From Candidatus Omnitrophota bacterium (GTDB lineage: Bacteria; Omnitrophota; Gorgyraeia; 2-01-FULL-45-10): a stretch of DNA of 64,000 nucleotides. How positions within the stretch are numbered: position 1 is the stretch's first letter; each line of letters starts with the position of its first letter. The translations under genes and the position numbers were made by a program. The stretch lies in NCBI GenBank assembly GCA_028699255.1, contig JAQVUX010000008.1, positions 3,715-67,714 on the forward strand, given 5' to 3'. The notes under the pieces were generated by a model. It did not search any database, was not told the DNA's origin, and saw only the letters and a list, made by a program, of their open reading frames with translations. Shown here one piece after another: positions 9,001 to 49,410 of this stretch.

Positions 9001-11599
9001 CCCTGCTCGATAATCCTGAATAAACCGACTCGGATGTAATAATACCGTTCGCATCATAAGTCACGGTCGAGTAAAGAGCGCCGGACGAGGCGTAATCATA
9101 TTTTGTCAGCGCGAGAATGTTACCCGTTTTATCATATGTAGTAACACTCGCTACCTTCTCGTCCTCTTTACGGCCCGAATATGACGTCTCGGACGTGATT
9201 ACGCCGTCTGCGTCTATAGTTACGGTAGATTCCAACGCCCCCGCCGCGTTATAGGAATAATTCGTTACCGAAATAACATTGCCAATCTTATCAAAATTGA
9301 TGGCCGACGCGATTTTCTCGTAACCCGATAGGCCGGAGTAGAAAGATATGGCCGTAATTATACCATCGGGATCGGCCGTCATCGTACTGGTAAGGGCTCC
9401 GGATACGTCATAAAGATAACTTATTATCGTCAATACGTTTTGCGACTTATCGAAACTTACGGCATACGAGATTTTCTCATAACCGGCAGGGCCGGCATAA
9501 TAAGTCTCGGACGAAACCGCGCCGAAGGAGTCGTAAATTACGGTCGAAGTGATAGTTCCGGCAATATTGTAATTATAGAATGTGGTTGTGAGGATAGCCC
9601 CCGCAAGATCGTACGCTGTGATGGATATAGCTTTTTCACAGCCCGACCTTCCATCATATGTAGTCTCGGACGTCTTTATACAGTCGGTGTTATATATAAC
9701 GGTTGTCTCGAGATTATTTGCTATTCCATAACTATAATACGAGATCGTAAGAATATCGCCTGAGAGATCAAAGCTTGTTACATTTGTTATCTTCTCCTGC
9801 CCTTCGGAACCTGAATATACGCTAAGGGATATCTTCACGCCATTTGGATCAAATGTCATTACAGTACCGAGAGAGCCGTTAGCATTATATTGGTATGCGG
9901 TCGTGGTAAGAATATTGCCTGAGAGATCGTAGCTGGTACCGCCGGAGGCTTTTTCATAGCCTTTATTGCCTATGTATAGCGTATTCGAAACGAGTACACC
10001 TTTTGCAGTATCATATCCTATATTCGAGTCTAATAGACGGTATGTATCGGTCTCGGTAAGGGCATTATTCACATATTTATAATCTGTGCGGACGGTAATG
10101 GCTCCAGCCGTAATATCAAACGTAAAGGTATGCGTTTTTAGCTCTTTACCTTCAGAGCCTTTATAAAAAGTTACCCCTTCCACCACAGCGCCTGTCAAGT
10201 CATAAGGATCGCTCGTCCCAACATATGCCGTAATCTTATCGAGGGTGCGCTTATTACCGTCTCCCCCTATCGCCGAATTATCGGCGTCTACGGCTAAATC
10301 ATAATTATAAACGCTTACGCTCGCTATGGTCGCGCCATCGGGCGCGTAATCATAAGAAAGCGTTATTACCTCATAATCTTTCAAACCAGTATACTCAGCG
10401 CACTGGCTTAAAACATAAGCGCCTTCCTTTATATAATAAGTAGCGGTCTTTTCGAGATGGCCATCGGTATTATAGATATAGCTTGTCTGGTATGCGGCCT
10501 TATAACTATTTGTGGACGTATCAAGATAATACGATGTCAAAACACTGTCTACTACTTCATGGCCTTTTGCGCCTGTATAGTTTGTTTTAGAAATTAGGTA
10601 TTGGTCGCAGGATTCGGAATTAGCTCTAAGATCTGTAAGACTGTCGGAAAGCGTCAAACCTTTTATGTTATACGCTCTCGTCTGACTTATGGCGTCGTCG
10701 CTGTTATAATCGTAGCAATCGATCCTTCCCGCGACACCATCGGCATAGTCACTTAAGGCGTAAGCTTCCTTCTCCTCACCTGACGAGCCTTCATATATGG
10801 CCTTTGAAACTAAAGAACCGCCGGTAGACAAATCGCCCTTCCATGCGTTAGAACCCGATGCTTCAAAGTCTATCGTCACAGCCGTTATATCGTAGGTATT
10901 TACTTCCGCAAGAGCCGAGGATGAGCCATATTCATAGATAGAGACAGATTCAGGCGTTCCGTCGACATAATCGGATAATATATATTCGATTTTTGCACTG
11001 CCCGATGAGCCGGAATACACAATAGTTTTTACTTTGAGCGAATCGGATAACTGGGTATAGTCGCCTGCCGTGTAACTTGCCATAACTAAGCTTTCGCCGT
11101 CTTCGCTCACCTTCTCAAGGCTCGAATTAGCCCACGACGCTTCCGCAAAATCACGGATGTCATACGAGGCTATCTTCGATAGGGCGCCTCCGGAAGTATA
11201 TGTATAGACGTATATCTGTTGCGGCTTGCCACTGGGGTCATAATCGGTAAGAGTGTACGCGACCTGTTTGCCGGAAACCGCGGCCGAGCTCGAGCGTTTC
11301 TTCTGCAATACCAGTGACTCGCTCTGGACGGGCTGTTGGCTCTGGATGGTGTAATTGGATTGGGTCTCGACTAAGTTTTTCTGGCTTATGACCGCCTCGT
11401 GCCTGGCCTGCGCATAAACAAGATAGGCGGGCGCAATATAATTTTGGGATTTTTGAGAATTGTCGGGAAGAAGAGATTTGGATGCGGAATATTTGTATTT
11501 GTATGAGAATGTGTCGGCGGCGAACGCAATCTGATCCCACATAAAAGTAAAGGATAGGATCAAGCACATAGCTCTGAATAAAATATTTTTATTATTCAT
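1..11599 (-). CDS. Giant secreted YD/RHS-repeat family protein, N-terminal >3860 aa; C-terminus lies beyond window start (partial)
   Basis: Only open minus frame from window edge to ~11599. The other two minus frames hit stops at 4-6 and 12-14, and no track ORF falls in this frame, which fits one ORF lacking an in-window stop. N-terminus MNNKNILFRAMCLILSFTFMWDQIAFA/ADTF is a Sec signal peptide. Hand translation gives repeated YxYDxxGxL motifs (YTYDLSGAL, YSYDASGAL, YDEEGRVATTE, YDAKGNLTGWTE, YDSNGRQ). Start coordinate is uncertain by 1 nt. Confidence 0.65.
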   Translation of the reverse strand, partial: MNNKNILFRAMCLILSFTFMWDQIAFAADTFSYKYKYSASKSLLPDNSQKSQNYIAPAYLVYAQARHEAVISQKNLVETQSNYTIQSQQPVQSESLVLQKKRSSSAAVSGKQVAYTLTDYDPSGKPQQIYVYTYTSGGALSKIASYDIRDFAEASWANSSLEKVSEDGESLVMASYTAGDYTQLSDSLKVKTIVYSGSSGSAKIEYILSDYVDGTPESVSIYEYGSSSALAEVNTYDITAVTIDFEASGSNAWKGDLSTGGSLVSKAIYEGSSGEEKEAYALSDYADGVAGRIDCYDYNSDDAISQTRAYNIKGLTLSDSLTDLRANSESCDQYLISKTNYTGAKGHEVVDSVLTSYYLDTSTNSYKAAYQTSYIYNTDGHLEKTATYYIKEGAYVLSQCAEYTGLKDYEVITLSYDYAPDGATIASVSVYNYDLAVDADNSAIGGDGNKRTLDKITAYVGTSDPYDLTGAVVEGVTFYKGSEGKELKTHTFTFDITAGAITVRTDYKYVNNALTETDTYRLLDSNIGYDTAKGVLVSNTLYIGNKGYEKASGGTSYDLSGNILTTTAYQYNANGSLGTVMTFDPNGVKISLSVYSGSEGQEKITNVTSFDLSGDILTISYYSYGIANNLETTVIYNTDCIKTSETTYDGRSGCEKAISITAYDLAGAILTTTFYNYNIAGTITSTVIYDSFGAVSSETYYAGPAGYEKISYAVSFDKSQNVLTIISYLYDVSGALTSTMTADPDGIITAISFYSGLSGYEKIASAINFDKIGNVISVTNYSYNAAGALESTVTIDADGVITSETSYSGRKEDEKVASVTTYDKTGNILALTKYDYASSGALYSTVTYDANGIITSESVYSGLSSREKVSTVTTLDKLGTILTVTSYFYGVSGVLTEAVTCDSSGIVSSETDYSGLESQEKISLTTTYDKTGNILTITSYSYDASGALLSTVTKDSGGVIVSESVYSGLSGCEKVLSVITFDHIGGILTTTGYSYDASGALDSTITRDADGIKTSETTYSGLSDYEKTSTVTSYDKSGNILAVTNYIYTASGALANTVTCDADSIVTSESAYSGLLGEEKVSVVTSYDKSGTILTKTNYVYAFSGALTSTVTCDSSGVITSEASYSGLENREKISQVTTFDKSGNILTATAYSYASSGALINTITADADGIKLSETVYSGLSGYEKVSAVTTLDKLGAILTTTSYSYASSGALINTITVDADGIKLSETVYSGLSGAEKIISSATFDKNGNVLTATAYSYAASGALAGTVTTDSDGIIISESTYFGLSSEEKISTATTYDKSGSILAITTYSYASSGAIESTITKNSDGIVTSVTIYSGLSGYENVSTITTFDSLGVILTATSYSYGSSGALCSTVTCDSNDVITSQVVYSGPSGAEKISTIATFDKSGVALAITNYTYNASGALTKTAATDGSGVVTSESVYSGLSGEEKVVSVTIFDKLHDTLTITTYSYDASGAIAKTVTSDVADTILSETIYLGLSGYEKISYVAVYDDNHNILTITNYSYDASGALTKNITKDSSGVVTSETVYSGLSGEEKVSTVKAYDKSGNILTIATYSYDISGALISTATNNSDGIIISESVYSGLSGYEKISSVISYDKSHNVLTTTSYTYNVAGAFTLATATDSTGVVISATSYSGLENQENIASVTTFDKTGNVLATTSYSYNSFGALIKTVTEDSGGVITSETVYSGLSGEEKASTVTAFDATGNILTITNYAYDASGALTLTVTTDSGGVTTSESVYSGLSGEEKIVSSTTFDNLGSILTTTAYSYAASGALASIVACDSDGVITSRSLYAGLSGEEKVSSIITYDASDNVLTTTIYSYDDAGALSKTITSDSTGMIKCESAYSGLSGYEKISTVTTFDNSGTVVTATSYIYDASGELASTATVDSDGVVTSESVYSGLSGFEKITSTISFDKSHDIVSVTAYTYDASGALIATITKDADDIITSSSVYTGREGGEKVSGVTTFDKLENALSTTSYSYDAYGALAGTVTTDPDGIIISESTYSGLSGEEKITSSTTFDKLHNALTVTNYSYTASGALAGTVTRDSQGIITSETLYTGLTGEEKISSVTTFDKLYNVLTQTDYTYDLSGALILTVTTDPDGIITSESTYSGPTGYEKALSATSYDKSGDMLSMTNYSYNASGALTKTVTKNSSGVITSESVYSGLSGYEKASAVTTFDDAGNALTVTTYSYDGSGALVLTVTVDSEDVVASVSAYSGLSGEEKIASSTTLDKLGDILTATIYSYDVSGALTKTVMSNSSGIVTSESAYSGLSGCEKLTSVATFDENYNIVGVTTYTYATSGAITGTITKDSLGFVTSVGEYSGLSGSEKIIFTTSYSVDPDGSPYLDTITSYTYDGVTGSLLLTIATDSDGNITSETIYKGLSGEEKADTCTNYYNGAVDSITNYVYSLSGALAETITYDSLGATKLSETYFAGLAGFEISDYTVNYYDDGAVKSTVYYYYGPDNLRAPDAFVQDALTAAKTHDQTGELVNIAYYEGLKGAEVMFFSQAHTTASDSSVAQIESTVIYEYGAGWTLAKSYTYFDGAEGSSDVTGLTQNCMAEYSGARGHEEICYMEGTTCQYAGEDTAEWDYYARTDFTYDSEGRNTGYIEAIYTPGGEWAWDASSGTLSRTTEVAFSDFDSDGRYNRMVRSVVVWNDATLAYDRTGEVTTQENYIYDSDEHLASYNVITVVPNEDTTYKEVTLDDYSGDNACAITTWELDENLVRTGDYSKQSGIVYDSRGRMKSYTLTTSDDSAISISTVYDIVYDKDKIIEDKVASGDDTIFFGENYSLRTYKYNTKGEVETTVVTNGDYTAIYDTDNRLIYFEYSESYQALIGSGSLSGGEDEAAGSRSGSASAADYFNDIISVLEASEAYQDINLSGATSIEYNAEGEVAKITDAKGNVFIYSDNRFSELQDGSGNTIAAIAYTDSSDGALSVSVSNLSDGSSAEFTYDADCRRVLVEETDSTGVATRLETYSYTYTSDGNVLTVSVHKEYYEDSIAVVVDSVEGYDENEKPVSIVTYYHKADERSYVSKWTCSYDSDGHAVYSTDIRCEAASYSLFDGTAALSQNISAYIDIFSAGGYSSLSSDDMNIFGAAEAVIYSTTWAATYDEEGRVATTETSEDDYQYEQVTDVCSSTILTVNSYVSSLSTSASNACDGDLDTYSGYYYRERGGSGYYYNGNYTYWTWTFTTPQDIVSLSWLLYCFAQTWSGASNNSGAWGVYITITSDSGTTVLADEFGSGGGDWSGGYSQNNTVVTDSAGWTGVTQIQVRLYGQAKRVDDGAGGGNEDIYHYMYEMQAVSDDYTAVNLVHKTSQTSDYVYDEKNNILQYTKVDSECAWSGYWGDTGEGTVTTTTTWTATGYTANKVTGYTEVAHTVSSDGTLDFTVTTTRSNMVYEGGILTGYEDVSVSSSAPDEITDSVFSNVAYDDYGRIIGYTEITRTYGTDSSTSAAIDVTTATVRYDMTYDAKGNLTGWTEDITVPTTRTDVTSITTHKVTTDGTYDASGRIKTFTETDTGLVDISSGSALEWREITTQRTATYYNTDSLILYEKDIVTTKDSSGNTLSAKTTITNGIQYDSNGRQCSYTTTIDGAISHVDSSRYNGLGQLVENYTAIENGYSENLYTYDSIGNLLTSQNHYYYDYSYSESQGKDSTITVHQHSETWTDYDKYGAQTSQTKNEYVNMDVESGFWDSFGSWFQSIVDVFLQAINVIPGFQGVGSILATVFDAIMSMANGTFSWVNFGVSIGLDILQMNHFFDNLFAAAKKLLPESVQGIFSNLINAGKSATTAENYWNAVCKGLIQTAVSKSIVIAGDACGWNTFLTSAVSSFASMAIGYGYDNAIG
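4100..9950 (-). repeat. Intragenic tandem array of ~37 units of ~159 nt (53 aa), diverged at nucleotide level, inside the giant ORF
   Basis: The motif gagcgccggaggc.gt.ataagagta recurs at ~4621, 4780, 4940, 5100, 5260, 5420, 5578, 5735 and onward, every ~159-160 nt. Unit translation is YxY(D/T)ASGALxxTVTxDxxGIITSExxYxGLxGEEKIxSxTTFDKxxNxLTxTx. Confidence 0.8.
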
Positions 11600-21540: not shown

Positions 21541-22479
21541 ATGGAAAAGATAAGGGTAGGGGTGGTGGGCGTAGGCCATCTGGGAACGTTCCACGCCAAA
21601 GTTTACTCAAGATTACCCAAGCACGTTAAGCTGGTAGGTGTTTGTGACTGCAATATCGAGCAATCCCTTGAGGTAGGAAAGAAATACCATACGGTAAGCT
21701 ATTCCGACTACGAGGATCTTTTTGACAAGGTCGACGCCGTAAGCATAGCCGTACCGACGAGCCTGCATTATAATGTCGCCAAGGATTTCTTAAACCACAA
21801 TATTCACGTCCTGGTCGAGAAACCCATTACTAAGACGCTTTCCGAGGCAGACGAGCTCATTGATATAGCAAAATCGCGGAATCTTATAATGCAGGTTGGC
21901 CATATCGAACGGTTTAATTCCGCGGTCCTTGCCATAGAGCCATATCTGAAGAAGCCCAAATTCATAGAATGCCAGCGTCTTGGTCCATTCCATAAAAGGG
22001 TCGAGGATGTGGGCGTCGTCCTGGATCTCATGATCCACGACATAGACATAGTGCTGGGGCTTATGAAGCAGGACGTCAAAAGCATAGAAGCGGTGGGATT
22101 AAGCACCATCTCGAACTACGAGGATGTCGCGAACGTACGTCTCACCTTCGAGGATGGCACCATCGCCGACATAACCGCCAGCCGGGTTACGAAAGATGTC
22201 GTCCGGAAGATGCGCATATTCCAGGAAGACTCATACGTTTCGCTCGACTATGTCACGCAGGACGCGGCCGTATTTGAAAAATCGGACGAGAAGATATTAA
22301 AAGAGAAGATCAAAATAAAGAAAAAAGAACCTCTTAAGAAAGAGCTCAAATCGTTCGTCGAATGTGTCCGGACCGGCAGGAAGCCGATCGTCTCCGGCGT
22401 TGAAGGAAGACGCGCGCTTCAGGTGGCGCTGGAGATAATAGATAAAATTAATTCGTCCGCGCATAGAGCCCGTTCATGA
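21541..22479 (+). CDS. Gfo/Idh/MocA family NAD(P)-dependent oxidoreductase (GnnA candidate)
   Basis: IRVGVVGVGHLGTFH Rossmann motif; 4-nt overlap with lpxB. Confidence 0.7.
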   Translation: MEKIRVGVVGVGHLGTFHAKVYSRLPKHVKLVGVCDCNIEQSLEVGKKYHTVSYSDYEDLFDKVDAVSIAVPTSLHYNVAKDFLNHNIHVLVEKPITKTLSEADELIDIAKSRNLIMQVGHIERFNSAVLAIEPYLKKPKFIECQRLGPFHKRVEDVGVVLDLMIHDIDIVLGLMKQDVKSIEAVGLSTISNYEDVANVRLTFEDGTIADITASRVTKDVVRKMRIFQEDSYVSLDYVTQDAAVFEKSDEKILKEKIKIKKKEPLKKELKSFVECVRTGRKPIVSGVEGRRALQVALEIIDKINSSAHRARS

Positions 22480-23612
22480 CCCAAAAGAAGGTCCTCATAG
22501 TCGCCGGCGAACCATCCGGCGATCTTCACGCCTCGAACCTCGTAAAAGATCTGAAAAAACTAAAACCCGATCTGCGATTTTTTGGAATGGGCGGATCGCT
22601 CTTAAAAGATGCCGGTGTCGATACGATATTCGACATATCAAAACTCGCGCTTATAGGCCTGAGCGAGGTATTGAAGAATATATTTACCGTCGGGCAGGTG
22701 TATAAAGGACTGCTAAACGCCATCGAAACCGAAAAACCCGATCTTGCCATACTCGTAGATTACCCCGGGTTCAATCTCCGGCTTGCCAAAGAATTAAAAA
22801 AGAGATCTATACCCGTCGTCTATTATATAAGCCCGCAGGTGTGGGCATGGGGACGCGACAGGATCGGTATAATACAACAGTGTGTTAAAAAAATACTCGT
22901 ATTCTTCAAATTCGAGGAAGAGCTTTATAAAAAATACGGCATAGACGCGGAGTTCGTAGGCCATCCGCTTCTTGATTCGACCGCTGTTTCCAGGGCAAAA
23001 GAGGATACGCTCAAGACCTACGGCCTGTCAAAAAACAACGCCACCATAGCAATCCTTCCCGGTTCGCGCGCCATAGAGATAAAACGGCTTTTGCCGGTAA
23101 TGATGCGCGCGGCATCGCTCATAAAAAATCGCCTGCCAGATACTCAGTTCCTTATAGCCAAATATCACGGACTGCCGCGCGAAATGTATGAAAAGATCGT
23201 AAAGGGCACTGGAATTGATGTAAAGATAGTGGACGGCGATACCTATAATGTCGCCGGGGCCGCGGATCTTGCGATAGTCGCGTCGGGCACAGCGACACTC
23301 GAGACCGCGATAATAGGGACGCCTCTTATTATCGTTTACAAGGTAAACTTTATCACACACATGGCATATAAACTTGTCATTAGAATAAAATTTCTCGGGA
23401 TAGTCAATATCATAGCGGGAAAAGAAGTAGCCCCGGAATTACTGCAGTATAATGCCACCGCGCAGAATATATCAAAAACAGCTATGGCGATATTATCCGA
23501 CCCGGTAAAATTACGGTCTATGCGCGAAGACCTTTCTAATGTGAAAGCTTCTCTCGGCCGGCCCGGCGCAAGTAAACGCGCGGCGCAAGCCATACTTCCC
23601 TTACTACAGTAA
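22476..23612 (+). CDS. lpxB: Lipid-A-disaccharide synthase
   Basis: VLIVAGEPSGDLHASNL N-terminus, 378 aa. Confidence 0.85.
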   Translation: MTQKKVLIVAGEPSGDLHASNLVKDLKKLKPDLRFFGMGGSLLKDAGVDTIFDISKLALIGLSEVLKNIFTVGQVYKGLLNAIETEKPDLAILVDYPGFNLRLAKELKKRSIPVVYYISPQVWAWGRDRIGIIQQCVKKILVFFKFEEELYKKYGIDAEFVGHPLLDSTAVSRAKEDTLKTYGLSKNNATIAILPGSRAIEIKRLLPVMMRAASLIKNRLPDTQFLIAKYHGLPREMYEKIVKGTGIDVKIVDGDTYNVAGAADLAIVASGTATLETAIIGTPLIIVYKVNFITHMAYKLVIRIKFLGIVNIIAGKEVAPELLQYNATAQNISKTAMAILSDPVKLRSMREDLSNVKASLGRPGASKRAAQAILPLLQ

Positions 23613-23624
23613 GATCGATCTGTT

Positions 23625-24428
23625 TTAGATTATAATTATCGAGATATTCTTTTCGTCGGCAAGTTTTATCAGCGCATCTCTGTCCATGAGGAGCGTTTTG
23701 TCGGCTTCGAGGGCAAGGGCCGTGCCGCCGGAATCGGCAAGGGTTTTTACGGTATCGAGCCCGACGAGCGGAACATCGAAGCGCATATCCTGATTGGGCC
23801 TGGCAACCTTCACTACAACGAACCCGCCCTTCATCAGCCTGCCGGAGCGCGCTATCGTTTCATCTGTACCTTCGATCGCTTCCACAGCTATAACCGTCTT
23901 CTCTTTCACGACTATCGTCTGGCCTATATCGAAACCGGAAAGAGATTTAGCGACTTCTTTACCGTAATTTATGTCCGCGAGCTCTCCATCGGATGGGCTA
24001 CGTTTTGTCAGCGTGCCTTTTGCGGGGATAAGCTCTTTCAAGTATGTCGTGGAATCTATAACCTCGACGCCGAATTTAGAAAGGATATTATTTATCTCGT
24101 TCAATACGGCGTAATCCTTTTTATCCTTTAGCTTATCGAGCATCTTCGCCGCAACCGGGTCGAACACTTTTTCATCGTTAAAAAGAATGTCTTTTTTAAT
24201 CTTACCAAGCATTATGATTTTTTTTATCCGCTCGGTAGCCAGGAGCAGTATCGCCTTCTGCAGGCTTCCCCATGGCACCCAATGGAGTTTGTCGACATGC
24301 TTCTCAAGGTCGGGCGATGTTATCCCTTTAAGGCCGAACGCTATCACTGTATCGCCTTTTTCCCTGGCGAGGCGTGAAAATATTATCGGCAGTTTCCCTT
24401 CTCCGGCTACAAGGCCTATACGCGCCAT
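23625..24428 (-). CDS. lpxI: UDP-2,3-diacylglucosamine hydrolase LpxI (DUF1009)
   Basis: RIGLVAGEGKLP, DIGQTIVV, AVEAIEGTDETI, PNQDMRFDVPLVG match LpxI motifs. Confidence 0.75.
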   Translation of the reverse strand: MARIGLVAGEGKLPIIFSRLAREKGDTVIAFGLKGITSPDLEKHVDKLHWVPWGSLQKAILLLATERIKKIIMLGKIKKDILFNDEKVFDPVAAKMLDKLKDKKDYAVLNEINNILSKFGVEVIDSTTYLKELIPAKGTLTKRSPSDGELADINYGKEVAKSLSGFDIGQTIVVKEKTVIAVEAIEGTDETIARSGRLMKGGFVVVKVARPNQDMRFDVPLVGLDTVKTLADSGGTALALEADKTLLMDRDALIKLADEKNISIIII

Positions 24429-24447
24429 TAAACAGCTACTCCTTTAC

Positions 24448-24921
24448 TCACTTGGTGCCGTCGGGATTGATGAACGCGAACATCATGTCCGCTTCGGCCG
24501 CCACTTCATTATCAACTTTGGCCGTGCCGTGGATCTTCATAACGCCCATCTTTACTTTTAATAGATCGACTTCCATCCTTAAGACATCCCCAGGCAGTAC
24601 CGGCTTGCGGAACTTCGCGTTATCTATGGTAAGAAAATATGCCAGCTTTCCTAAATTCGTCTTCAGATTAAGAGCGCCGACACCGCCGACTTGCGCCATC
24701 GCCTCCATTATCAAAACCCCCGGCATTATCGGATGCCCGGGGAAATGGCCCTGGAAAAAAGGTTCGTTTATCGTAACGTTCTTTATGCCTACGACCCTGT
24801 TCTCGCCTATCTCGATAATCCTGTCGACCAGTAAAAACGGATACCTGTGCGGCAGTATTTTTTGGATCGCGTTTATATCTAAAACTTTACCGGCTATATC
24901 GAGCCCTTCTGCGCCCATCAT
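24448..24921 (-). CDS. fabZ: 3-hydroxyacyl-ACP dehydratase
   Basis: [14 protein letters not shown]...FFQGHFP hotdog motifs. Confidence 0.9.
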
Positions 24922-24934
24922 TTATCTCCTATCG

Positions 24935-25795
24935 TTATTTTATTTTTGTCTTAAGTTTCTTCACTAATTCCGCATTCAACCCATGGCCGCTCTTTATCGC
25001 GACCACATGGCCCAAAAAAGGCATACCCAGGACATATAAGTCGCCCATAAGATCCAGTATCTTATGCCGCACCGGCTCGTCGGGAAATCTTAATACCGTC
25101 TTGATCGGCCCCGATTTGCCCATCACCAGCGTATTATCGTAGTTGGCCCCTTTGCCGAGACCGCGCCTCAATAGCTCCTGCGCCTCTTCTTCGAGGCAGA
25201 ATGTCCTGGCAGGGGCTATATTTTTTTCAAAGTTTTTTTCGTTAAGCGTAATACTGTAAAATTGTGTTCCCAGCGCCGGGTTCGCGTATGCCAATGTATA
25301 TGATATCTTAAATTCTTCGGCAGGAAAAACCGCGATAAAGCGGTCGCCGTCTGCACACCATACAGGTTCATCGATCTTCAAAAATTTCCTCGGAAAATCC
25401 TGTTCTATTATGCCCGCATTCTGTATTATCTGCCCGAACTCTTTGGCACTGCCATCGAGACCGGGTAATTCAGCATTGTCGAGTTCTATTACAATATTAT
25501 CTATCGATAATCCTGAGAGGGCGGCAAGAAGATGTTCGGTCGTCTGTATTTGGAGCGGGCCAAATCCCAGTATCGTTCTTCTTTTGCCTGGGTCAAAATC
25601 ACCGGGGTTTATCGAGTTGAGGCTGAGTGTGGGCTTATCCGGGAGGTCGGTTCTTACGAAAATTATGCCGGTGCCGGCAGGGGCGCTCTTCATAGTCAAG
25701 CGCACCTTCGAACCGGTTTGAAGTCCTATACCGTCGATTATAGCCGGAGTTTTGATCGTTCTCTGCTTCGTCATAGCGCGGCTTCCGCTCACCAT
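24935..25795 (-). CDS. lpxC: UDP-3-O-acyl-GlcNAc deacetylase
   Basis: TTEHLLAAL, HKILDLMGDL motifs. Confidence 0.9.
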   Translation of the reverse strand: MVSGSRAMTKQRTIKTPAIIDGIGLQTGSKVRLTMKSAPAGTGIIFVRTDLPDKPTLSLNSINPGDFDPGKRRTILGFGPLQIQTTEHLLAALSGLSIDNIVIELDNAELPGLDGSAKEFGQIIQNAGIIEQDFPRKFLKIDEPVWCADGDRFIAVFPAEEFKISYTLAYANPALGTQFYSITLNEKNFEKNIAPARTFCLEEEAQELLRRGLGKGANYDNTLVMGKSGPIKTVLRFPDEPVRHKILDLMGDLYVLGMPFLGHVVAIKSGHGLNAELVKKLKTKIK

Positions 25796-26826
25796 TACTT
25801 CTGCAATTCTTCTATTTTGGCTTCGAGCCGCCGGACGCGTTCGAATAATTTCGGGAGAAGCCCTAATGCCGCAAATTGTTCGCGCGCTTTATCTGCCGGT
25901 TTCGACGGATAACCGAAGAGCGTGGTATTTGATGGATAAGATTTATGGATGCCCGTTTTGGCGCCCGCGATTACAAAATCCCCGATCTTTACGTGGTCGG
26001 ATACGCCTACCTGCCCGCCGAATATTACGTTCTTTCCGATCTCGGAGCTTCCGGCTATGCCGGACTGAGCCGCAACGACGCAATCCGGTCCTATTATGAC
26101 ATTATGCGCTATCTGCACAAGGTTATCGATCTTTGAGCCATGGCCGATAACGGTCTTATTAAACCTTGCCCTGTCTACCGTGACACAAGCCCCCAGCTCA
26201 ACTTCATCCTCTATTATCACTGTGCCGATCTGTGGTATCTTTGCCTGCGTCCCGTCTCTCTGAACGTCATATCCGAACCCATCGCTTCCCACCACACTGC
26301 CAGGGTGGATAATAACACCGTTACCTATCGTCACTTCCTCGCGTATGGTTACGTTCGGATAAAATATGCAACCTTTGCCTATTTTTGCGTTCTTACCGAT
26401 ATAGCAGAAAGGATATATTATCGTCCCATCTCCGACGGAAGCGCCATCTTCTATAACCACATACGGCCCGACGCCAACATCCTTCCCGATGTTGGCGGTC
26501 TTTGAGATAACGGAGGTAGCGTGTATCCCTTTCGGATGCGGTATCCGCCCGGGCATAACCATCCCTATTATCCTGGAAAATGCTATGGACGGATTATCGA
26601 CCTTTATCAGCGGTTTGTCAAATACTCCGGTGAGGCTCTTAGGCACTACGACACATCCTGCCTTCGTCGCATTTATCAGTTCGCCGCATCTCGGATTGAG
26701 AATAAAAGCCAGATCCCCTGCCCCGGCCTCCCTGACACCATTTATGCCTTTTACAAGAACCTCGCCGTCGCCGACAACTTCTCCGCCGACAAATCTCGCT
26801 ATCTCTTTTACTTTTGCCTGCATCAC
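25795..26826 (-). CDS. lpxD: UDP-3-O-acylglucosamine N-acyltransferase
   Basis: Left-handed beta-helix hexapeptide repeats; 343 aa. Confidence 0.9.
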
Positions 26827-26831
26827 TTCCT

Positions 26832-27344
26832 TTATTTCTTATTCAGCTTTTCCAGTATCTGGCTGGTAAGGTCATACTGTTCGGCTCCGTAAAGAAGCAT
26901 ACGTGAGTTGAGCACGAAATCATACCCGGAAGCCTTCGCGTAATCATTTACAACTTTTTCGATATCCTTCATTATGCCGGCGAGAATATCATTGCGCTCT
27001 TTTACAAGTTCATTGCGCGCCTTCATGTCATATTCCTGCAGTGCCTTTATCTTCGTATCGATAACGCCCTGCTTATCGGCTTTCGCTTTTTCGGAGAGTA
27101 GCGCCTGTTCGTCTTTGAGCTTCTTTATCTCTTCGACCAGCTTCATCCTCTCGGCCTCTTTTGCCTTACCTTTCCCCTCGAGTATCTTTTCCGAATCTTT
27201 AGTCTTGCCATATTCGTCAAATACCTTCGCAAGGTCAACATAGGCAAACTTCATCTCCTTAGCGAACGCCTTCTCGCATATCGGGCCCGCAAAAAGTCCC
27301 GCAACAAACAACGCCGCCGTCAATATCACTATACCTTTCTTCAT
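26832..27344 (-). CDS. skp: Periplasmic chaperone Skp (OmpH)
   Basis: Signal peptide plus coiled-coil 170 aa, between lpxD and bamA. Confidence 0.7.
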
Positions 27345-27397
27345 CTTACTCCTCCTTTTTAATTTTTGTTTTCTGTTTCTTCATTATTAAATTCTAC

Positions 27398-29731
27398 TTA
27401 AAATCCTCTGCTCATACTGAAATACACCTGACCTTCCCGCTTGTCCTCATGATTCTTGCTGAGCGGATAGCCATAATCAACCTTAACCGGCCCCAGCGGC
27501 GTCTTGACCCTGACACCGACGCCGACGCCGGCCTTGAACTGCGACGCCTCGTCGGCAAAATCGCCTATCTTTCTCCACACGTTTCCTACATCGTAAAAGA
27601 CCGCTCCTTTAATAATCTTCTCATATACCGGGAATGTAACTTCCGCATTACCTATGAGTAGCGCATTACCGCCTATCGGATCATTGGAAGCGCTATCTCG
27701 AGGGCCGACATATCGTTCTCTGTATCCGCGTATCGTATTTGCGCCGCCGGCGTAGAACCTTTCGTATATCGGAACATCGTTACTGTTACCATATGCGTCC
27801 GCAAAACCCATCCGCGCTTTGCCTTCTAAAACTATTTTGTCGAAAATGGTATAGTATATGCTCGCCGACGCGGTACCCTTCCAGAAATTCTTATCTCCGC
27901 CGAATACGCCGCCGGCATCTTCTATGGTGCCGTTGATCACATATCCTTTGGACGGAGTATAAATATTATCCCTGGTATCCTGAGTTACCCCAAACGTCAT
28001 ACTGGAAATAATGTTACTGCCTTCTTCGTCTTTCATGTCCTGCGAAACATTGGAGTCAAGATTCGATATCTTTACATCTTCGACACGGTAATATATATCT
28101 CCTCTAAAGGTATCCGTAAACTCTTTCCCGACTTTAAGATCGCCGCCCGTCCTGGTTTCATCATACGACCATCCTACGTCGGAATCCTTATCATGCGAAG
28201 TCCTGTATACGTCGAACCCTCCGAGAAACGGGAAACCGAATATCCACGGATCGGACCATCCTATATTATAATTCGATCTGACCATACCTATCTCGCCCTT
28301 GATCGTCAGGCTCTGGCCGCCGCCGGTAAACGTCGGGAAGTTCAGGATATCGAAGTTTCTCTGTGTTATCTCCGCGAAGCCCATCAACATATCTATGGAA
28401 CTGTATCCACCGCCGAAGGAGAACTCGCCCGTCTTGGTCTCTTTTACATTAACCACGAGATTCTGCACATTCGGGTCTTCGGTCGGCTCGGTATCAAAAC
28501 TGACGTTTTCAAAGAATCCAAGATTATACAACCTCTCTTTTGAACGGCGTATTTTATCCCCGCTGAATTTATCGCCCGGGAAAAGCCTCAACTCTCTTCG
28601 CACGACAACGTCGCGCGTTTTAAGGTTGCCGCGGACATCTATCTTACCCACATAGACTACCTCTTTCGGGTCAATATTATATGCTATGTCTACACTGCTG
28701 GTCTGTGGATTGAGGTTCTTCTCGACATCGATTATGACATTCATATATCCGTATTTATAATAGAATTGCCTGATGGAAAAAATATCCTCGCGCAAAGCCC
28801 TTGTAGAAAACGGCTTGCCCTTCTTCATAAATATATTTTTTCTGACTTCTTTTTCCGGATAGACGAGCGCGCCGGAGAATGTTATGTCGCCGACCAGATA
28901 CTGCTTGCCCTCTTTTACCTCGATATCTACGGCAAGAACCCTGCCCTCCTCGGAGTGATCGAGATGAGGTATGACTTCCGCATCCATAAATCCTATATCG
29001 TCATAAAGAGCTTTGATCTTATCGATATCGTCCTGTAACGTCTCCTCGTTAAAAACGCCGGGATTGAAAAGCCATGCGGGCTTAGTCCCTAATATCCGTT
29101 TTATCTCTTTCGTCTTGACGGCTTTATTGCCGGAGATCTTTACGCTCGCGACTTTGACATGCAATTTTTCGTCGATGGCAATCGTGATCACGGCTTTATT
29201 GGTTTCTTTATCCGTATCGATCGTATACTTTACGTCAACCTGAGGGTACCCCTTTTTCACATACATAGCTTTTATTTCACTGATGTCCTGGGCTAAAAGC
29301 GAAAGGTTGAGCATTTCATTCGGCTTCGATTTCATGCTTGTCTTAAGTTTCTGCGGCCTGAAAACGTTATTACCTTTAAATACGATATCGTCTATTACGG
29401 GTTTTTCCTCGACGACAAAAGCTACGGAGACCCCGCCCGCAGAATCCTCCACATCTATGGATATATCGGTAAAATACTGCGTTGCGTACAGTTTTTTAAG
29501 GTCGTCATTCAAGACCTCCTGGCTGAACTTGTCGCCCGGCTTGGTCCTTATCTTCGACAGGATGGTTTCAGCGCTGATCGTCTTGTTGTTACGAACGCTT
29601 ATTGCCGTTATGGCCTTGCCCTCATTAGTAACGGGCGGCTGGTCATTATCTGAATACGCCGCAGTCGTTATAAAAAGAAGTAAAAATGCGGCAGACGTAC
29701 GGACAATTAATTTTTGGTATATCGCTATCAT
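27398..29731 (-). CDS. bamA: Outer membrane protein assembly factor BamA
   Basis: 777 aa, POTRA repeats plus C-terminal beta-barrel ending in F. Confidence 0.9.
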   Translation of the reverse strand: MIAIYQKLIVRTSAAFLLLFITTAAYSDNDQPPVTNEGKAITAISVRNNKTISAETILSKIRTKPGDKFSQEVLNDDLKKLYATQYFTDISIDVEDSAGGVSVAFVVEEKPVIDDIVFKGNNVFRPQKLKTSMKSKPNEMLNLSLLAQDISEIKAMYVKKGYPQVDVKYTIDTDKETNKAVITIAIDEKLHVKVASVKISGNKAVKTKEIKRILGTKPAWLFNPGVFNEETLQDDIDKIKALYDDIGFMDAEVIPHLDHSEEGRVLAVDIEVKEGKQYLVGDITFSGALVYPEKEVRKNIFMKKGKPFSTRALREDIFSIRQFYYKYGYMNVIIDVEKNLNPQTSSVDIAYNIDPKEVVYVGKIDVRGNLKTRDVVVRRELRLFPGDKFSGDKIRRSKERLYNLGFFENVSFDTEPTEDPNVQNLVVNVKETKTGEFSFGGGYSSIDMLMGFAEITQRNFDILNFPTFTGGGQSLTIKGEIGMVRSNYNIGWSDPWIFGFPFLGGFDVYRTSHDKDSDVGWSYDETRTGGDLKVGKEFTDTFRGDIYYRVEDVKISNLDSNVSQDMKDEEGSNIISSMTFGVTQDTRDNIYTPSKGYVINGTIEDAGGVFGGDKNFWKGTASASIYYTIFDKIVLEGKARMGFADAYGNSNDVPIYERFYAGGANTIRGYRERYVGPRDSASNDPIGGNALLIGNAEVTFPVYEKIIKGAVFYDVGNVWRKIGDFADEASQFKAGVGVGVRVKTPLGPVKVDYGYPLSKNHEDKREGQVYFSMSRGF

Positions 29732-44492: not shown

Positions 44493-45020
44493 TTAAGACC
44501 CCATCTTTATCGTTCCCAGCGAAACGCCTTCCCTTTCGGTCTGCTCCTTCACTTTGGTATCCATGTTTTCCTTCGCCTTAAGGGAGTCTTCGACCCGGGC
44601 TTTTAGATTGAGGTACTCGGCGTTGGCCTGGTCGCACTTTTTCTGCAGATCCGCCTTCGCGGCCTTTTCCGTCTCAAGTTGTGTTTTTAACGAACGCAGT
44701 TCATCCTCGCGCACCCGGAGGCTGGCAACATTGTCATTATTCGATTTTTGTTCTTCTTCGAGTTGCCCCGTTATTTTAGCTATCGTCTCTTCCTGGGTAG
44801 TAAGACGGGTCTTGAGTTCAATATTAAGTGTATCCGCGTCCTTTAATTTCGTCTCTAAGTCCTGTTTCACCGTTATAACCTCGTCGAACCGTTTCTGTAA
44901 AGCCTTCTTCTTCCCCTTTTCGGACTCCTCCATCGTGTAAAACGCTACGGTGGCATATAAAAGGATAAAACACGCTAAAATCAGGGAGATAACAACTGCT
45001 TTATTTCCGTCTTTTATCAT
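44493..45020 (-). CDS. Membrane-anchored coiled-coil protein (175 aa) at distal end of T2SS operon
   Basis: N-terminal TM VVISLILACFILLYATVAF, then heptad-rich K/E/L sequence. Confidence 0.5.
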   Translation of the reverse strand: MIKDGNKAVVISLILACFILLYATVAFYTMEESEKGKKKALQKRFDEVITVKQDLETKLKDADTLNIELKTRLTTQEETIAKITGQLEEEQKSNNDNVASLRVREDELRSLKTQLETEKAAKADLQKKCDQANAEYLNLKARVEDSLKAKENMDTKVKEQTEREGVSLGTIKMGS

Positions 45021-45065: not shown

Positions 45066-47030
45066 TTATTCATTCGAAATATCCACACTGAAACGCTTAT
45101 CCCCTGGACCCATCATCTTGGGAAATGACGGGAAAGGCGATGCGGCCTTGACTGCATTTATGGCGGCCGTATCGAGTTCCGGGTTCGATGACCTGACGAT
45201 ATCCGGCCCGCCCTTTATCTCGCCCTTTGGCGACAATAGGAAAGTAACCCGCACGCTACCCTTTTTTAAGGTACCGCGTTTTGCCTTCGGGAGGCTCGCA
45301 TTTTGCATTATCAGGCTCTTCAGCGCGTAACCGTAATCCTCCGAAGTAGTTGTTACGAATTTTTTGGCGGCCCAGCCTTTTTCCAATTCAAGCGCAGGCT
45401 GTTTCTTGGTTTTAAACATACCGGGATCTATCGGATATTCATTCCTTCTCTCGAATGTCGGTTTCTCGTTCGTCGTAAATCCTTTTTCATTGATCGGATA
45501 TGTTTCCGGCTGTTCCAAAAGATCGTATTCACCGGTTACTATATGAGGCGTCAAAAATACTACAAGCTCCTGTTTCTGCACTCTATCATTAGTCTTCTGG
45601 AACGCTTTACCTATGATCGGGATATCTCCCAGCACCGGTATCTTGTCAACGGTACTCGTTCTTTCATCTTTTATCAACCCGCCTATTATTATGGTCGTCC
45701 CATCCTTTACCGTAACGGATGTCTCCGCCTGTGTGGTCTGGACTATCGGAACGGTGGTGGAGGGGCTTCCGTAAGTATAATTATCCGTTGACGAACTGAC
45801 TTCCGGCTTTATCTTCATAGTTACGAAACCGTCTTTATTGATGGTTGGCGTCACGTACAATTTTACGCCTATATCGATAAAGGTAAGATTTGTCGCAGTG
45901 GTAGCAAGGCCCGTCGTCTGAGTAACGGTATTTGTGGCGTATGGCTGGGATACACCCACCAGTATCTTCGCCTCCTGATTATTGAGCGCCGTTATCCTCG
46001 GGCTTGATAGCAAGTCAGTATTGCCGATGGTTTTTAATACCTGTATCATCAGCGCCCAGTCGGATTCACCGATGGCACCTATAACTATCTGAGCGCCGGG
46101 GACGAAAGCGCCCTGTACCGCCTGCTGGAACATACTCGATATATTGATACCTTTACTTGCCGAACCGACTTTCTGTATGACAGACGTCCAGTCGACACCA
46201 AGCTTATATTCGTCGGTCAACGTTATCTGCACTATCTTCGCTTCTATTAAAACCTGTTGGAGCTTATCATCAAACGCCGTAACAAGCGCCTCTACCTCCG
46301 ACATTTTTTTATCGAGATCGGTAACGGCTATCTTATTCGTCCGCTCGTCGATCTGCATGGTGCCGATGCCTTTGGTCAGCGATTCCGATACCTTGGCTTT
46401 AAGATCCGCGGCCTTTGCGTATTTGAGCTCAAATACTTTCGTTACCGTCAGCATATCCATCTTGGCCAGTGCTTCCGATATCTGCTCCACCGTCTGCGGT
46501 GAATCGATAACAACTATGGTGTTGGATCCGTCATCCACCACTATCTTGCCTACCTTGGTCTTCATCTGATTCAGCGCTTTCGAAGCGTCACTCGCCTTCG
46601 CGTATTTCAGCTGGAACACTTTGACTTCTTTCCTGTCGCCGTACTTCTCACCGTAGGCCGTCTCATACTCCCTTTGCGACATGACATACACTATGTCGCC
46701 GCGCCTATCGCAGGCCAGGCCGTTGGAGGCGAGTATTATCTCGAGGGCATCCATGATATTGACGCTCTTCAAAAATATAGTAACGCGGCCTTTAACATCG
46801 TTCGAGAGGACCACGTTCATATTGCCTTTCGTCGCGAGCATCTTTATAACCTCCACGACGTCCATGCCTTTCAGGTCGAGCGATATCTTATCGGAAACAG
46901 ACGTTTGGATCATGGGGCCTTTAACCACGGATGGCGTGGACTCCAGCTGGGCATAGGCCGGGCAGATATTGCCGGCGGGCAAAATAGAAGTAAAAGCAAT
47001 CATGGTAATTATCGAAACTATCTTCTTCAT
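45066..47030 (-). CDS. gspD: Secretin (GspD/PilQ family) with C-terminal TonB_C-like domain
   Basis: Signal peptide, N0/N1 repeats (KVFQLKYAKASDASKAL, KVFELKYAKAADLKAKV), secretin core ...DKIPVLGDIPIIGKAFQ...VVFLTPHIV. C-terminal ~130 aa ends GTLKKGSVRVTFLLSPKGEI...SSNPELDTAAINAVKAASPFPSFP, which is TonB-C-like. Confidence 0.8.
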   Translation of the reverse strand: MKKIVSIITMIAFTSILPAGNICPAYAQLESTPSVVKGPMIQTSVSDKISLDLKGMDVVEVIKMLATKGNMNVVLSNDVKGRVTIFLKSVNIMDALEIILASNGLACDRRGDIVYVMSQREYETAYGEKYGDRKEVKVFQLKYAKASDASKALNQMKTKVGKIVVDDGSNTIVVIDSPQTVEQISEALAKMDMLTVTKVFELKYAKAADLKAKVSESLTKGIGTMQIDERTNKIAVTDLDKKMSEVEALVTAFDDKLQQVLIEAKIVQITLTDEYKLGVDWTSVIQKVGSASKGINISSMFQQAVQGAFVPGAQIVIGAIGESDWALMIQVLKTIGNTDLLSSPRITALNNQEAKILVGVSQPYATNTVTQTTGLATTATNLTFIDIGVKLYVTPTINKDGFVTMKIKPEVSSSTDNYTYGSPSTTVPIVQTTQAETSVTVKDGTTIIIGGLIKDERTSTVDKIPVLGDIPIIGKAFQKTNDRVQKQELVVFLTPHIVTGEYDLLEQPETYPINEKGFTTNEKPTFERRNEYPIDPGMFKTKKQPALELEKGWAAKKFVTTTSEDYGYALKSLIMQNASLPKAKRGTLKKGSVRVTFLLSPKGEIKGGPDIVRSSNPELDTAAINAVKAASPFPSFPKMMGPGDKRFSVDISNE

Positions 47031-47071: not shown

Positions 47072-47722
47072 TTACAAAAATAATGATATCTTCCGGCCGC
47101 CGTAATCGAGGACAACTTTGCCCTCGGATATCTCCTCGACGACATATCCATTGAAGGACTGGCCCTTATTAAGGTAGTACGTCTTCTGAGCCTTCTTATC
47201 CTCTACGATCGCCTGGGGATTGTCACCGGTTATTATGCCTACAAGCCCGAGCTTCTCGGAGATGCCGTCGGAGGATCCCACCTCTTCCGGAGTTGACGCC
47301 TCGCCGGGTGACTGGCCAAATACCACAGCCCCGCCGCCCGCGGTCGAATACGATGAATAATCCTTAACCACAACCGCCTTCTTGGCAGTGGCTTTCCTTG
47401 TCGATTCAGGAATTGGTTTGGAAATAAGCGCCTGGATGTTTTTATACGGCCTGACGAAGATAAGGTCTATCAATAAATATAAGGCGAGCACGCCAAGCAC
47501 GATAAAGAGGTATTTGTTTAAACTTTTTAGTGTTTGCGGCTCAAAAGCCTTACCTTTGAATATATCGCTTTTCAACATACCGGATATGCGCTCATCCGCC
47601 TTCGACGCTATCGTGGCGGAAGTCTTCGCAATATCCGCCTGCAAAGCGGTCGGGCCATTAGACTTGGCCTTGTTTTTTATGAGTTTTAGCAATCGTTCTT
47701 CCGGAGATACGTCTTTTACCAT
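47072..47722 (-). CDS. GspC/PilP-like inner-membrane secretin-interacting protein
   Basis: Cytoplasmic N-terminus, one TM, C-terminal beta domain GLVGIITGDNPQAIVEDKK...GKVVLDYGGRKISL resembling an HR/PilP domain. Confidence 0.45.
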   Translation of the reverse strand: MVKDVSPEERLLKLIKNKAKSNGPTALQADIAKTSATIASKADERISGMLKSDIFKGKAFEPQTLKSLNKYLFIVLGVLALYLLIDLIFVRPYKNIQALISKPIPESTRKATAKKAVVVKDYSSYSTAGGGAVVFGQSPGEASTPEEVGSSDGISEKLGLVGIITGDNPQAIVEDKKAQKTYYLNKGQSFNGYVVEEISEGKVVLDYGGRKISLFL

Positions 47723-48538: not shown

Positions 48539-48774
48539 GCTACTTCTTCCTTAATAATATTCTCTATCTTTTTCAACGACACTTTTTGATGGCGAAGCTC
48601 GATTATCTTCTTCAATTCTTCGAGCGTAGAATCGTCGAAGTACCTGAAATTAGTACCTTCGCTCCTCGATATTTCTTTGATAAGGCCAAGTTTGAGGTAG
48701 TATTTGATAGTATAAACGGATAGCCCTGAAAGGCTGGATAGGTCTTTAATAAGGTATATGTTCTTCTCGCTCAT
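48535..48774 (-). CDS. MerR-family HTH regulator (79 aa, DNA-binding domain only) inside the T2SS operon
   Basis: YLIKDLSSLSGLSVYTIKYYLKLGLI is a MerR wHTH. Palindrome TACTCTC-N6-GAGAGTA at 48803-48822 just upstream. Confidence 0.6.
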   Translation of the reverse strand: MSEKNIYLIKDLSSLSGLSVYTIKYYLKLGLIKEISRSEGTNFRYFDDSTLEELKKIIELRHQKVSLKKIENIIKEEVA

Positions 48775-48867: not shown

Positions 48868-49410
48868 TTATTCTATGATTATCTTGCTGATAATAAAACT
48901 TCCGCGGAGGGCGCCTTCCTGACCCGCTTTTGAGGTCAGTACGAAGTGGCGGACTTTGAGAATGGCTGATTTGGTATTTTCTATATCATATAAAAATTTG
49001 GTAAACTGGCTGAGGCTCCCTTCCGAAGAAAGATCGACCATTATCTCTTTATATTTACCGTGATCTTTAGTACCGACAGGCTTTATATTCAGTATAAGGC
49101 ATGAGTCGGACCGCGATAGATCCTCGAGGTATGATAGAATTTCGGCCGCGGTTTCTTCCTCATTCTTCTCCGACTTAACATATTTGGAAAATTTCGAGTA
49201 GTCCGATTCCAGAGCCTTACGTTCCGCGAGTATGGCCAGATCTTTCTTAAGTGTGACCGCCTTCGACCTCATCTCGAAATTTAAAGCCTGCCATTCCCGC
49301 GCGATGGGCTCGAGGATCAACACATAAAGCGCGGATACGATGACTATGAGCACCGTAGCGTATGCTATCGAACTTTCACGCTTGGACATATTTTTTAAGA
49401 TATGGCGCAT
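48868..49410 (-). CDS. PilO/GspM-like bitopic protein
   Basis: N-terminal TM, coiled coil, C-terminal ferredoxin-like region; operon position after the PilMN fusion. Confidence 0.5.
   Translation of the reverse strand: MRHILKNMSKRESSIAYATVLIVIVSALYVLILEPIAREWQALNFEMRSKAVTLKKDLAILAERKALESDYSKFSKYVKSEKNEEETAAEILSYLEDLSRSDSCLILNIKPVGTKDHGKYKEIMVDLSSEGSLSQFTKFLYDIENTKSAILKVRHFVLTSKAGQEGALRGSFIISKIIIE

Follow-up and report, generated by a model that had tools for sequence, protein, structure and literature searches.

Secretin targeting and assembly and the register of secretins with the inner-membrane platform have been solved lineage by lineage, through pilotins, AMIN domains, GspAB and TsaP/FimV. 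The C-terminal domains of TonB and TolA share a fold whose established activity is the capture of a short peptide strand onto the edge of its sheet; domain III of TolA (TolAIII) captures the N-terminal strand of TolB in this way. In type II secretion systems (T2SS), the accessory proteins GspA and GspB tie the secretin to the inner membrane and/or the peptidoglycan and aid its assembly (PMC9239104). In Pseudomonas aeruginosa, the TonB homologue TonB3 of the PocAB-TonB3 system is functionally tied to a secretin machine, the type IVa pilus, and a contact between TonB3 and PilQ's N0 domain has been suggested (PMC5285504). Here we analyse a secretin that itself carries a C-terminal TonB_C domain. 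It is encoded at 45066..47030 on the minus strand of a 64,000-nucleotide stretch (contig JAQVUX010000008.1; hereafter the window) of a Candidatus Omnitrophota metagenome-assembled genome (MAG), comprises 654 aa and is the last core gene of a complete minus-strand T2SS operon.

The protein is a secretin by all sequence tests, yet it stays under the equivalog cut-offs for GspD and PilQ. Pfam, run on the whole protein, matches PF00263 Secretin at residues 332–498 (E 5e-50; 169.8 bits versus a gathering score of 27.5) and two copies of Secretin_N (85.2 bits). STN (23.3 bits) and N0 (21.9 bits) remain under their Pfam cut-offs, and AlphaFold2 (AF2) predicts the N0 fold with confidence at residues 48–126. 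The NCBIfam models for GspD (TIGR02517) and PilQ (TIGR02515) score 265.6 and 276.6 bits, against cut-offs of 351.35 and 284.35, respectively. With its signal peptide, N0/STN domain, Secretin_N repeats and PF00263 core, the protein resembles GspD, PilQ and MshL of T2SS and type IV pilus (T4P) systems, and like T2SS secretins it is encoded together with GspC, E, F, G, H, I, J, K, L-like and M proteins. On this sequence evidence we assign it as the outer-membrane secretin of a complete T2SS of an Omnitrophota bacterium. By inspection and AF2, the signal peptide lacks a lipobox, nor is it a membrane anchor of the TonB type; it is followed by secretin domains, and an N-terminal inner-membrane anchor for coupling to ExbB/ExbD is absent. 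The sequence QLESTPSVVKG, with which the mature secretin begins, was considered as a conserved Ton box and rejected, since this segment is unconserved in an alignment of 89 sequences. The 100%-identical NCBI entry bears the title ‘MAG: TonB family protein [Candidatus Omnitrophica bacterium]’, which is a misnomer because the C-terminal domain is the sole TonB feature of the protein.

That C-terminal domain belongs to the TonB_C family in both sequence and fold, far beyond chance, while the whole protein is not a TonB. Three models score above their cut-offs: PF03544 TonB_C at residues 581–636 (31.6 versus 24.6 bits), PF13103 TonB_2 at residues 565–639 (25.7 versus 22 bits) and NCBIfam TIGR01352 tonB_Cterm (30.4 versus 27.1 bits). 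On the C-terminal fragment alone TonB_C is matched with E 2.3e-8, and there is a weak match to the NCBIfam TolA model TIGR02794. A profile derived from 46 family C-termini (alignment A1) retrieves the C-terminal domain (CTD) of Helicobacter pylori TonB from the PDB (6sly, E 9.5e-7; 5lw8), together with HasB-CTD. AF2, supplied with the same alignment, predicts a helix-strand-strand-helix-strand fold with a predicted local distance difference test (pLDDT) value >90 throughout the domain, comprising a helix at residues 563–576, strands at 591–599 and 605–614, a helix at 618–630 and a terminal strand at 645–653. Foldseek places TonB-CTD 6sly (E 1.1e-4, probability 1.0), TolAIII (2x9a, 6s3w, 3qdr), HasB and the BtuB:TonB complex at the top of the structural matches to this model, with target-normalised TM-scores of 0.70 for 6sly and 0.76 for 2x9a. 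The solved complexes of TonB with a Ton box (2gsk) and of TolAIII with a TolB peptide (6s3w) are among the best matches, and structural agreement with TolAIII (2x9a, 6s3w, 3qdr, 4g7x) is as good as with TonB. Conserved positions of the domain are Y566, F597, G603, P609, SSN, A-P-F-P-x-F-P (632–637), K645 and F647. Features of the TonB-CTDs of Escherichia coli, H. pylori, HasB and FusB, namely the SS(G/N) and LD..A..AV-type motifs and the C-terminal edge strand, are conserved here.

The original prediction, made from the letters and translations of the window, had placed a TonB_C-like domain at the S-domain position of this secretin, and the above results bear it out. Both sequence strings on which it relied are present, VVFLTPHIV at residues 489–497 and GTLKKGSVRVTF...AASPFPSFP inside the C-terminal domain. 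The tail it described after the secretin core exists and is longer than the proposed ~130 aa, with 156 aa following the Pfam core; the interval it gave spans the last 136 aa, its upper end being one base out of frame (45476 is in frame). The domain has a TonB_C fold and is not a variant of a common S-domain. Helices of an S-domain, or a helix-turn-helix directly after the secretin core, do not appear in the full-length AF2 model, where residues 499–562 form low-confidence coil and residues 563–653 adopt the TonB_C fold. AMIN and SPOR domains, searched for with Pfam over the whole protein, were likewise not detected. Where GspD, PilQ and MshL carry these modules, the present protein has a linker followed by TonB_C. 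No lipoprotein gene was recognised in the T2SS operon in the Pfam and open reading frame (ORF) scan; pilotins elsewhere in the genome were not searched for.

The linker is not proline-rich, unlike the spacer of TonB, and the full-length AF2 monomer (predicted TM-score, pTM, 0.41; linker pLDDT ~50) does not confidently pack the linker and the TonB_C domain onto the rest of the protein; inter-subunit contacts cannot show in a monomer model. Within the linker, a short motif is conserved in alignments A1 and A2, with R529 invariant and F518, T519, E522 and F526 conserved at ≥90%. It is restricted to the clade at ≥47% identity and missing from distant TonB_C-secretins. A second clade of TonB_C-secretins (L007, L008; P0182, P0205, P0228, P0233, P0250) has another conserved segment directly after the core, GEKSYxDFSEIKPKDGxxxxMEKGxIVxxK, in which D, G, M and G do not vary. 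The latter half, GxIVxxK, is reminiscent of the tail of the downstream protein described below. This segment may act as a Ton box in cis, or, since it abuts the core directly, may simply be barrel surface.

Fusion of TonB_C to the secretin is conserved. In the survey of related secretins, the domain is present in 120 of the 120 best homologues (47–74% identity, 505–703 aa), and those with a taxon name are all Omnitrophota. The synteny ExeA-GspC-secretin is common to GTDB species representatives. Distant Omnitrophota secretins (38–44% identity; L007–L015) also carry TonB_C, with different linkers. The domain is missing from two orthologues placed in the ExeA-GspC-secretin synteny: L016, which is 673 aa long and contains a third Secretin_N domain, and L017, of 560 aa. 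Within the family, the core of secretin P0123 (851 aa) is followed by three TonB_C-like repeats in tandem, and Pfam matches two of them. An exhaustive phmmer search with the C-terminal 136 aa against 1.84 billion representatives matched 215 proteins. Among the best 150 of these, 19 also match the core of the query secretin at E ≤1e-3 (17 at E ≤1e-24); all 19 are members of this secretin family, and a taxon name, Omnitrophota, is attached to just one. The remaining matches among the best 150 are ordinary TonB-sized or multi-repeat TonB_C proteins, the best non-secretin match being P0124 (560 aa), with five tandem TonB_C domains. Literature searches for secretin or GspD with TonB_C, for PF03544 with PF00263 and for Omnitrophota secretins retrieved no publication on a secretin-TonB_C fusion. 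The domain combination is visible to automatic annotation and undescribed as far as we found, our survey of the fusion being within this Omnitrophota secretin family.

Individual loci of the survey differ in their surroundings. In L017, the secretin (7992..9671) ends in a 32-aa acidic tail and is followed at 9674..10837 by a 388-aa protein that combines a membrane anchor with a long coiled coil and TPR repeats; this pair may be a mirror arrangement, in which the rod would bear the peptide-binding module and the secretin would bear the peptide. Four loci titled ‘uncultured Planctomycetia bacterium’ (L003, L004, L010, L011) have the same operon, with secretins 40–65% identical to the query, and these titles may be loose labels for Omnitrophota-like MAGs. 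In two of them, the gene right after the TonB_C-secretin (L010 9820..11610; L011 9844..13047) encodes a large secreted protein with a signal peptide, of at least 597 aa in L010 and 1,067 aa in L011, which may be cargo; the L010 copy has no Pfam match. An apparent 1,229-aa secretin-GspE fusion ORF in L007 (3355..7041) is artefactual, the contig containing a masked stretch of N that was read as X.

Downstream of the secretin, starting 46 bp after its stop codon, lies a gene for a 175-aa coiled-coil protein, here called CC175. Its N-terminus is short and positively charged and is followed by a 19-residue hydrophobic segment, with a median net charge of +2 before and 0 after this segment (n = 21 sequences); the charge bias weakly favours a topology with the N-terminus inside and the C-terminus in the periplasm. 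CC175 has no Pfam or NCBIfam family. A homology to CpoB, the TolA-binding protein, was rejected, as TolA_bind_tri scores 20.4 bits against 30.1 and stands among generic coiled-coil matches. JGI names a 99%-identical protein ‘chromosome segregation ATPase’, a coiled-coil artefact. In an alignment of 17 CC175 sequences (A3), the coiled coil is divergent, identity to the window protein dropping to as little as 30%, and the C-terminal tail (consensus EGVSLGTIVV) is the best-conserved segment: L168 and G169 are invariant, and E164, S167, T170, I171 and V172 are conserved at ≥90%.

CC175 is strictly co-encoded with the fusion in this clade. An orthologue follows the TonB_C-secretin in the window and in L001, L002, L005, L006 and L020–L024, of which L021–L024 were chosen to span 47–53% secretin identity. 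Three of these four have no ExeA-like ATPase: in L022–L024 the HR-domain protein, the secretin and CC175 are present and the ATPase is absent. A metagenome scan seeded on CC175 yielded 12 loci, and a TonB_C-secretin lies directly upstream in all 11 that have upstream sequence, so that CC175 adjoins a TonB_C-secretin in 21 of 21 loci (10 including the window, plus 11 from metagenomes). We scanned for the tail as LG[TSA] followed by three aliphatic positions, with Lys tolerated at the second. In the window and L001–L020 the motif occurs in the C-terminal tail of no other ORF; among L021–L036, one 51-codon ORF (L035) also matches near its end. Ton boxes of outer-membrane receptors include DTIVVTA in FepA, and their consensus pentapeptide is ETVIV. 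The tail sequence SLGTIVV resembles DTLVVTA within the BtuB Ton box PDTLVVTANR (PMC5413942). We also considered the tail as a PDZ ligand and rejected this, since 1–8 further residues usually follow the motif and the GspC-like protein of the operon has no PDZ domain. No earlier description of such a co-conserved, Ton-box-like coiled-coil protein was found.

From these observations we tentatively favour, at somewhat below an even chance, a passive tether in which the tail of CC175 is predicted to bind the TonB_C domain of the secretin, as a Ton box binds TonB with the partners inverted. Each secretin subunit would present one TonB_C domain on a flexible leash of ~65 residues, emerging near the inner leaflet of the outer membrane. 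The domain would capture a short β-strand peptide by strand addition, as TonB and TolA do, and in this clade the most likely ligand would be the CC175 tail EGVSLGTIVV. CC175, if anchored in the inner membrane, would span the periplasm with a coiled coil of ~19 nm (130 residues × 0.15 nm). A Ton-box-like strand would thereby sit on an inner-membrane rod and its TonB_C receptor on an outer-membrane pore. The resulting trans-periplasmic tether could position or stabilise the secretin above the inner-membrane platform, or aid its assembly, in addition to the usual contact between the HR domain of GspC and N0, and could fill the role held elsewhere by a pilotin and S-domain, by AMIN domains or by GspA/GspB scaffolds. 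Unlike in TonB, where the domain belongs to an inner-membrane anchor with a proline-rich spacer, the domain lies here on an outer-membrane pore and the polarity across the periplasm is reversed. TolA combines an anchor, a long helix and domain III; CC175 and the TonB_C domain, if joined through the tail, would amount to the same parts on two polypeptides in two membranes, and TolQRB-Pal genes are not found near the secretin operon. A scaffold tying a T2SS secretin to inner membrane and wall has a precedent in GspB/OutB (PMC9239104). In common with the GspA/GspB scaffolds (ExeAB, OutB), the present operon encodes a GspA-like ATPase and an HR-domain protein, here directly upstream of the secretin, whereas the proposed tether would consist of the secretin TonB_C domain and a coiled-coil protein, and the GspAB papers we found mention neither.

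Several points weigh against a tether through CC175. The resemblance of its tail to a Ton box covers seven residues, too short a motif for statistics, and no meaningful significance can be assigned to it. Co-occurrence with the secretin is confined to one clade with conserved synteny, in which hisG and a transketolase gene are also kept downstream in L006 and L020. CC175 is likewise accompanied by the clade-specific linker motif, which could be the true contact instead, and the hydrophobic N-terminus of CC175, rather than anchoring it, might be cleaved off as a signal peptide. In L007–L015 (38–44% identity), neither a CC175 gene nor the tail motif is present in up to ~8 kb of downstream flank, and therefore the ancestral role of the domain cannot depend on an adjacent CC175 gene; either the partner is encoded elsewhere in the genome in these distant clades or CC175 joined an already existing function at a later stage. 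Retention of the domain there would be accounted for by an anchor to the cell wall, in which TonB_C binds peptidoglycan or a peptidoglycan-associated protein and fixes the secretin in the wall, much as PilQ is fixed by AMIN domains, ExeD by the periplasmic domain of ExeA/GspA and OutD by a C-terminal extension in OutB/GspB. The C-terminus of E. coli TonB reportedly binds peptidoglycan in vitro. The lack of AMIN and SPOR in the secretin itself, the lack of a periplasmic peptidoglycan-binding domain in the 271-aa GspA/ExeA-like ATPase and the established scaffolding of T2SS secretins by wall or inner membrane (PMC9239104) all fit such an anchor. However, no LysM, OmpA_C, PG_binding, SPOR or AMIN motif or family was detected. 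The activity established for the fold is capture of a peptide strand (2gsk, 6s3w), and an anchor in the wall leaves the strictly co-encoded CC175 with its conserved, strand-like tail unexplained; we consider it unlikely.

Similarly small is the probability we assign to a collar formed by self-association, in which TonB_C domains bind either the N0/STN domain or the linker motif belonging to their own or an adjacent subunit, and the resulting ring aids assembly or stability of the multimer in place of the inter-subunit clamp of the S-domain. The domain occupies the S-domain position, the linker motif is strongly conserved in this clade, the conserved linker segment of the other clade includes the strand-like GxIV element, and the tandem repeats of relatives such as P0123 agree with this arrangement, as does the interaction with the N0 domain of PilQ proposed for the TonB homologue of PocAB-TonB3 (PMC5285504). 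Yet the AF2 monomer gives no confident packing of linker or domain, with the reservation on inter-subunit contacts stated above, the linker motifs vary between clades while the domain is constant, and the conservation of the CC175 tail would have no explanation. The least supported of these readings is that of the original prediction, by which the secretin docks to TonB-dependent receptors or further proteins of the outer membrane through their Ton boxes, or is coupled to a proton-driven motor of the Ton/Tol type. The domain is a true TonB_C, and the title of a study of natural transformation in Acinetobacter baumannii (PMC8811193) names TonB2 among the genes involved. TonB3 is genetically linked to type IVa pili (PMC5285504); it is, however, a separate inner-membrane protein with an ExbBD-like motor, whereas the domain here forms part of the secretin itself and a motor was not found. 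Because the secretin has a signal peptide and is an outer-membrane protein, there is no TonB anchor and no path to ExbBD. Energisation is unsupported, since the ORFs scanned in the window, including the T2SS operon, contain no ExbB, ExbD, TolQ/TolR or TonB-dependent receptor; a second TonB_C ORF is absent from the window and from the flanks of L001–L020. In complete Omnitrophota genomes, the neighbourhoods of giant proteins examined contained no canonical clusters of TonB-dependent receptors or of sus type (preprint 10.64898/2026.06.07.730766). We regard this reading as very improbable. What stands of it is placement through a Ton-box-like interaction, with which the CC175 tail is consistent as a candidate ligand. 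Because this tail belongs to the co-encoded CC175, the candidate lies on an inner-membrane-anchored or periplasmic protein and not on another protein of the outer membrane.

Coordinates and supporting evidence for the secretin, CC175 and the T2SS operon are collected in Table 1. The operon runs in the order GspE, GspF, GspG, GspH-like, GspI-like, GspJ, GspK, the PilM/PilN-type GspL equivalent, GspM, a MerR-like ORF, the GspA/ExeA-like ATPase, the GspC/GspB-like protein and the secretin, and the full T2SS gene set beside the secretin, including GspC, GspK and GspG, is kept in L001–L024. The single-protein PilM-PilN fusion at the GspL position is kept throughout the Omnitrophota loci. The MerR-like ORF (~48540..48774, minus strand; ~78 aa) has the look of a MerR-type helix-turn-helix protein and lies between gspM and the ExeA-like gene; its 73-aa counterpart in L021 has Pfam MerR matches, and it may be a regulator inside the operon. 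Compared with Aeromonas ExeA, the ATPase consists of the AAA_22 part alone, without a transmembrane segment. Its stop codon abuts the start of the HR-domain protein, resembling the ExeAB pair; in studied systems the HR-type domain binds the N0 domain of the secretin.

Table 1 Features of the secretin, its downstream gene and the T2SS operon in the window
Feature	Position	Strand	Evidence
GspE ATPase	55200-56921	-	Pfam T2SSE (E 3.5e-134) and MshEN
GspF platform protein	53964-55181	-	Pfam T2SSF (E 1e-58)
Major pseudopilin GspG	53506-53949	-	Pfam T2SSG and N_methyl among pseudopilin matches
GspH-like gene	52993-53505	-	Prepilin-type N-terminus
GspI-like gene	52617-53003	-	Prepilin-type N-terminus
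GspJ	51952-52620	-	Pfam T2SSJ
GspK	50948-52060	-	Pfam T2SSK_1st
PilM/PilN-type fusion in GspL role, 471 aa	49395..50810	-	Pfam PilM_2 and PilN
GspM-like protein	48868..49410	-	Pfam T2SSM_b
GspA/ExeA-like AAA ATPase, 271 aa	47723..48538	-	Pfam AAA_22 (E 3.5e-18); TIGR03015 173 bits, below cut-off; synteny
GspC/GspB-like bitopic protein, 216 aa, C-terminal HR-type domain	47072..47722	-	Pfam T2SSC (E 2.8e-6; 27.6 bits versus 27); weak T2SSB; synteny
Secretin signal peptide, residues 1–27, MKKIVSIITMIAFTSILPAGNICPAYA, cleaved before Q	46950..47030	-	Cleavage site by inspection; AF2 helix 2–15, then disordered stretch
Secretin periplasmic N-domains, residues 48–253 (N0/STN 48–126; two Secretin_N-type, 135–191 and 195–253)	46272..46889	-	Pfam STN, type_II_gspD_N0, two Secretin_N; AF2 secondary structure
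Secretin β-barrel core, residues 259–498, terminus VVFLTPHIV	45537..46256	-	Pfam PF00263; AF2 strands 259–498
Secretin linker, residues 499–562	45345..45536	-	Low-confidence coil, AF2 pLDDT 46–63
Conserved short linker motif, residues 512–540 (P512, F518, T519, E522, F526, R529, then M-x-P-G-x-F-K)	45411..45497	-	Alignments A1 and A2
TonB_C/TolA-III-fold domain, residues 563–654	45069..45344	-	Pfam, NCBIfam, alignments, AF2, Foldseek
CC175, 175 aa (putative N-terminal hydrophobic anchor, residues 9–27; ~130-aa coiled coil; conserved C-terminal tail)	44493..45020	-	ORF, Pfam, alignments
CC175 tail, residues 164–175, EGVSLGTIKMGS in the window; family consensus EGVSLGTIVV	44496..44531	-	Alignment A3

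Farther from the operon, the window contains a cluster for outer-membrane biogenesis (22476..29731) with lpxB, lpxI, fabZ, lpxC, lpxD, skp and bamA, and the organism is therefore a diderm with lipopolysaccharide. At 2..11599 on the minus strand lies a giant ORF of at least 3,866 aa, with its ATG at 11599 and a signal-peptide-like N-terminus, that extends beyond the window on the left. Ser, Thr and Tyr are abundant in it, and a 159-bp tandem repeat lies at 7899-8192. The apparently ORF-free region at 1.9–11.6 kb had been considered as rRNA or CRISPR, which was rejected, as the stretch is this one giant ORF. Its product may be a substrate of the T2SS, because Omnitrophota giant proteins have been reported near T2SS/T4P genes (bioRxiv 10.64898/2026.06.07.730766).

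The public-database name ‘TonB family protein’ misleads metabolic and transport inferences for Omnitrophota genomes. A wider reading, that the secretin and CC175 form a motor-free, split and inverted TonB/TolA module between the two membranes, of a kind undescribed so far, and that the fusion serves as a ‘Rosetta stone’ pointing to direct contacts of TonB_C with secretin complexes behind the unexplained links of TonB homologues to secretin machines in other bacteria, such as PocAB-TonB3 with PilQ, is possible but doubtful. If the proposed tether is true, the strand-capture domain of TonB and TolA works from the outer-membrane side, which bears on the unexplained genetic links of TonB homologues to type IV pilus or T2SS function. 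Secretin placement would then have one more solution, fusion of TonB_C to the pore itself, in a poorly known phylum with giant secreted proteins beside its secretion genes.

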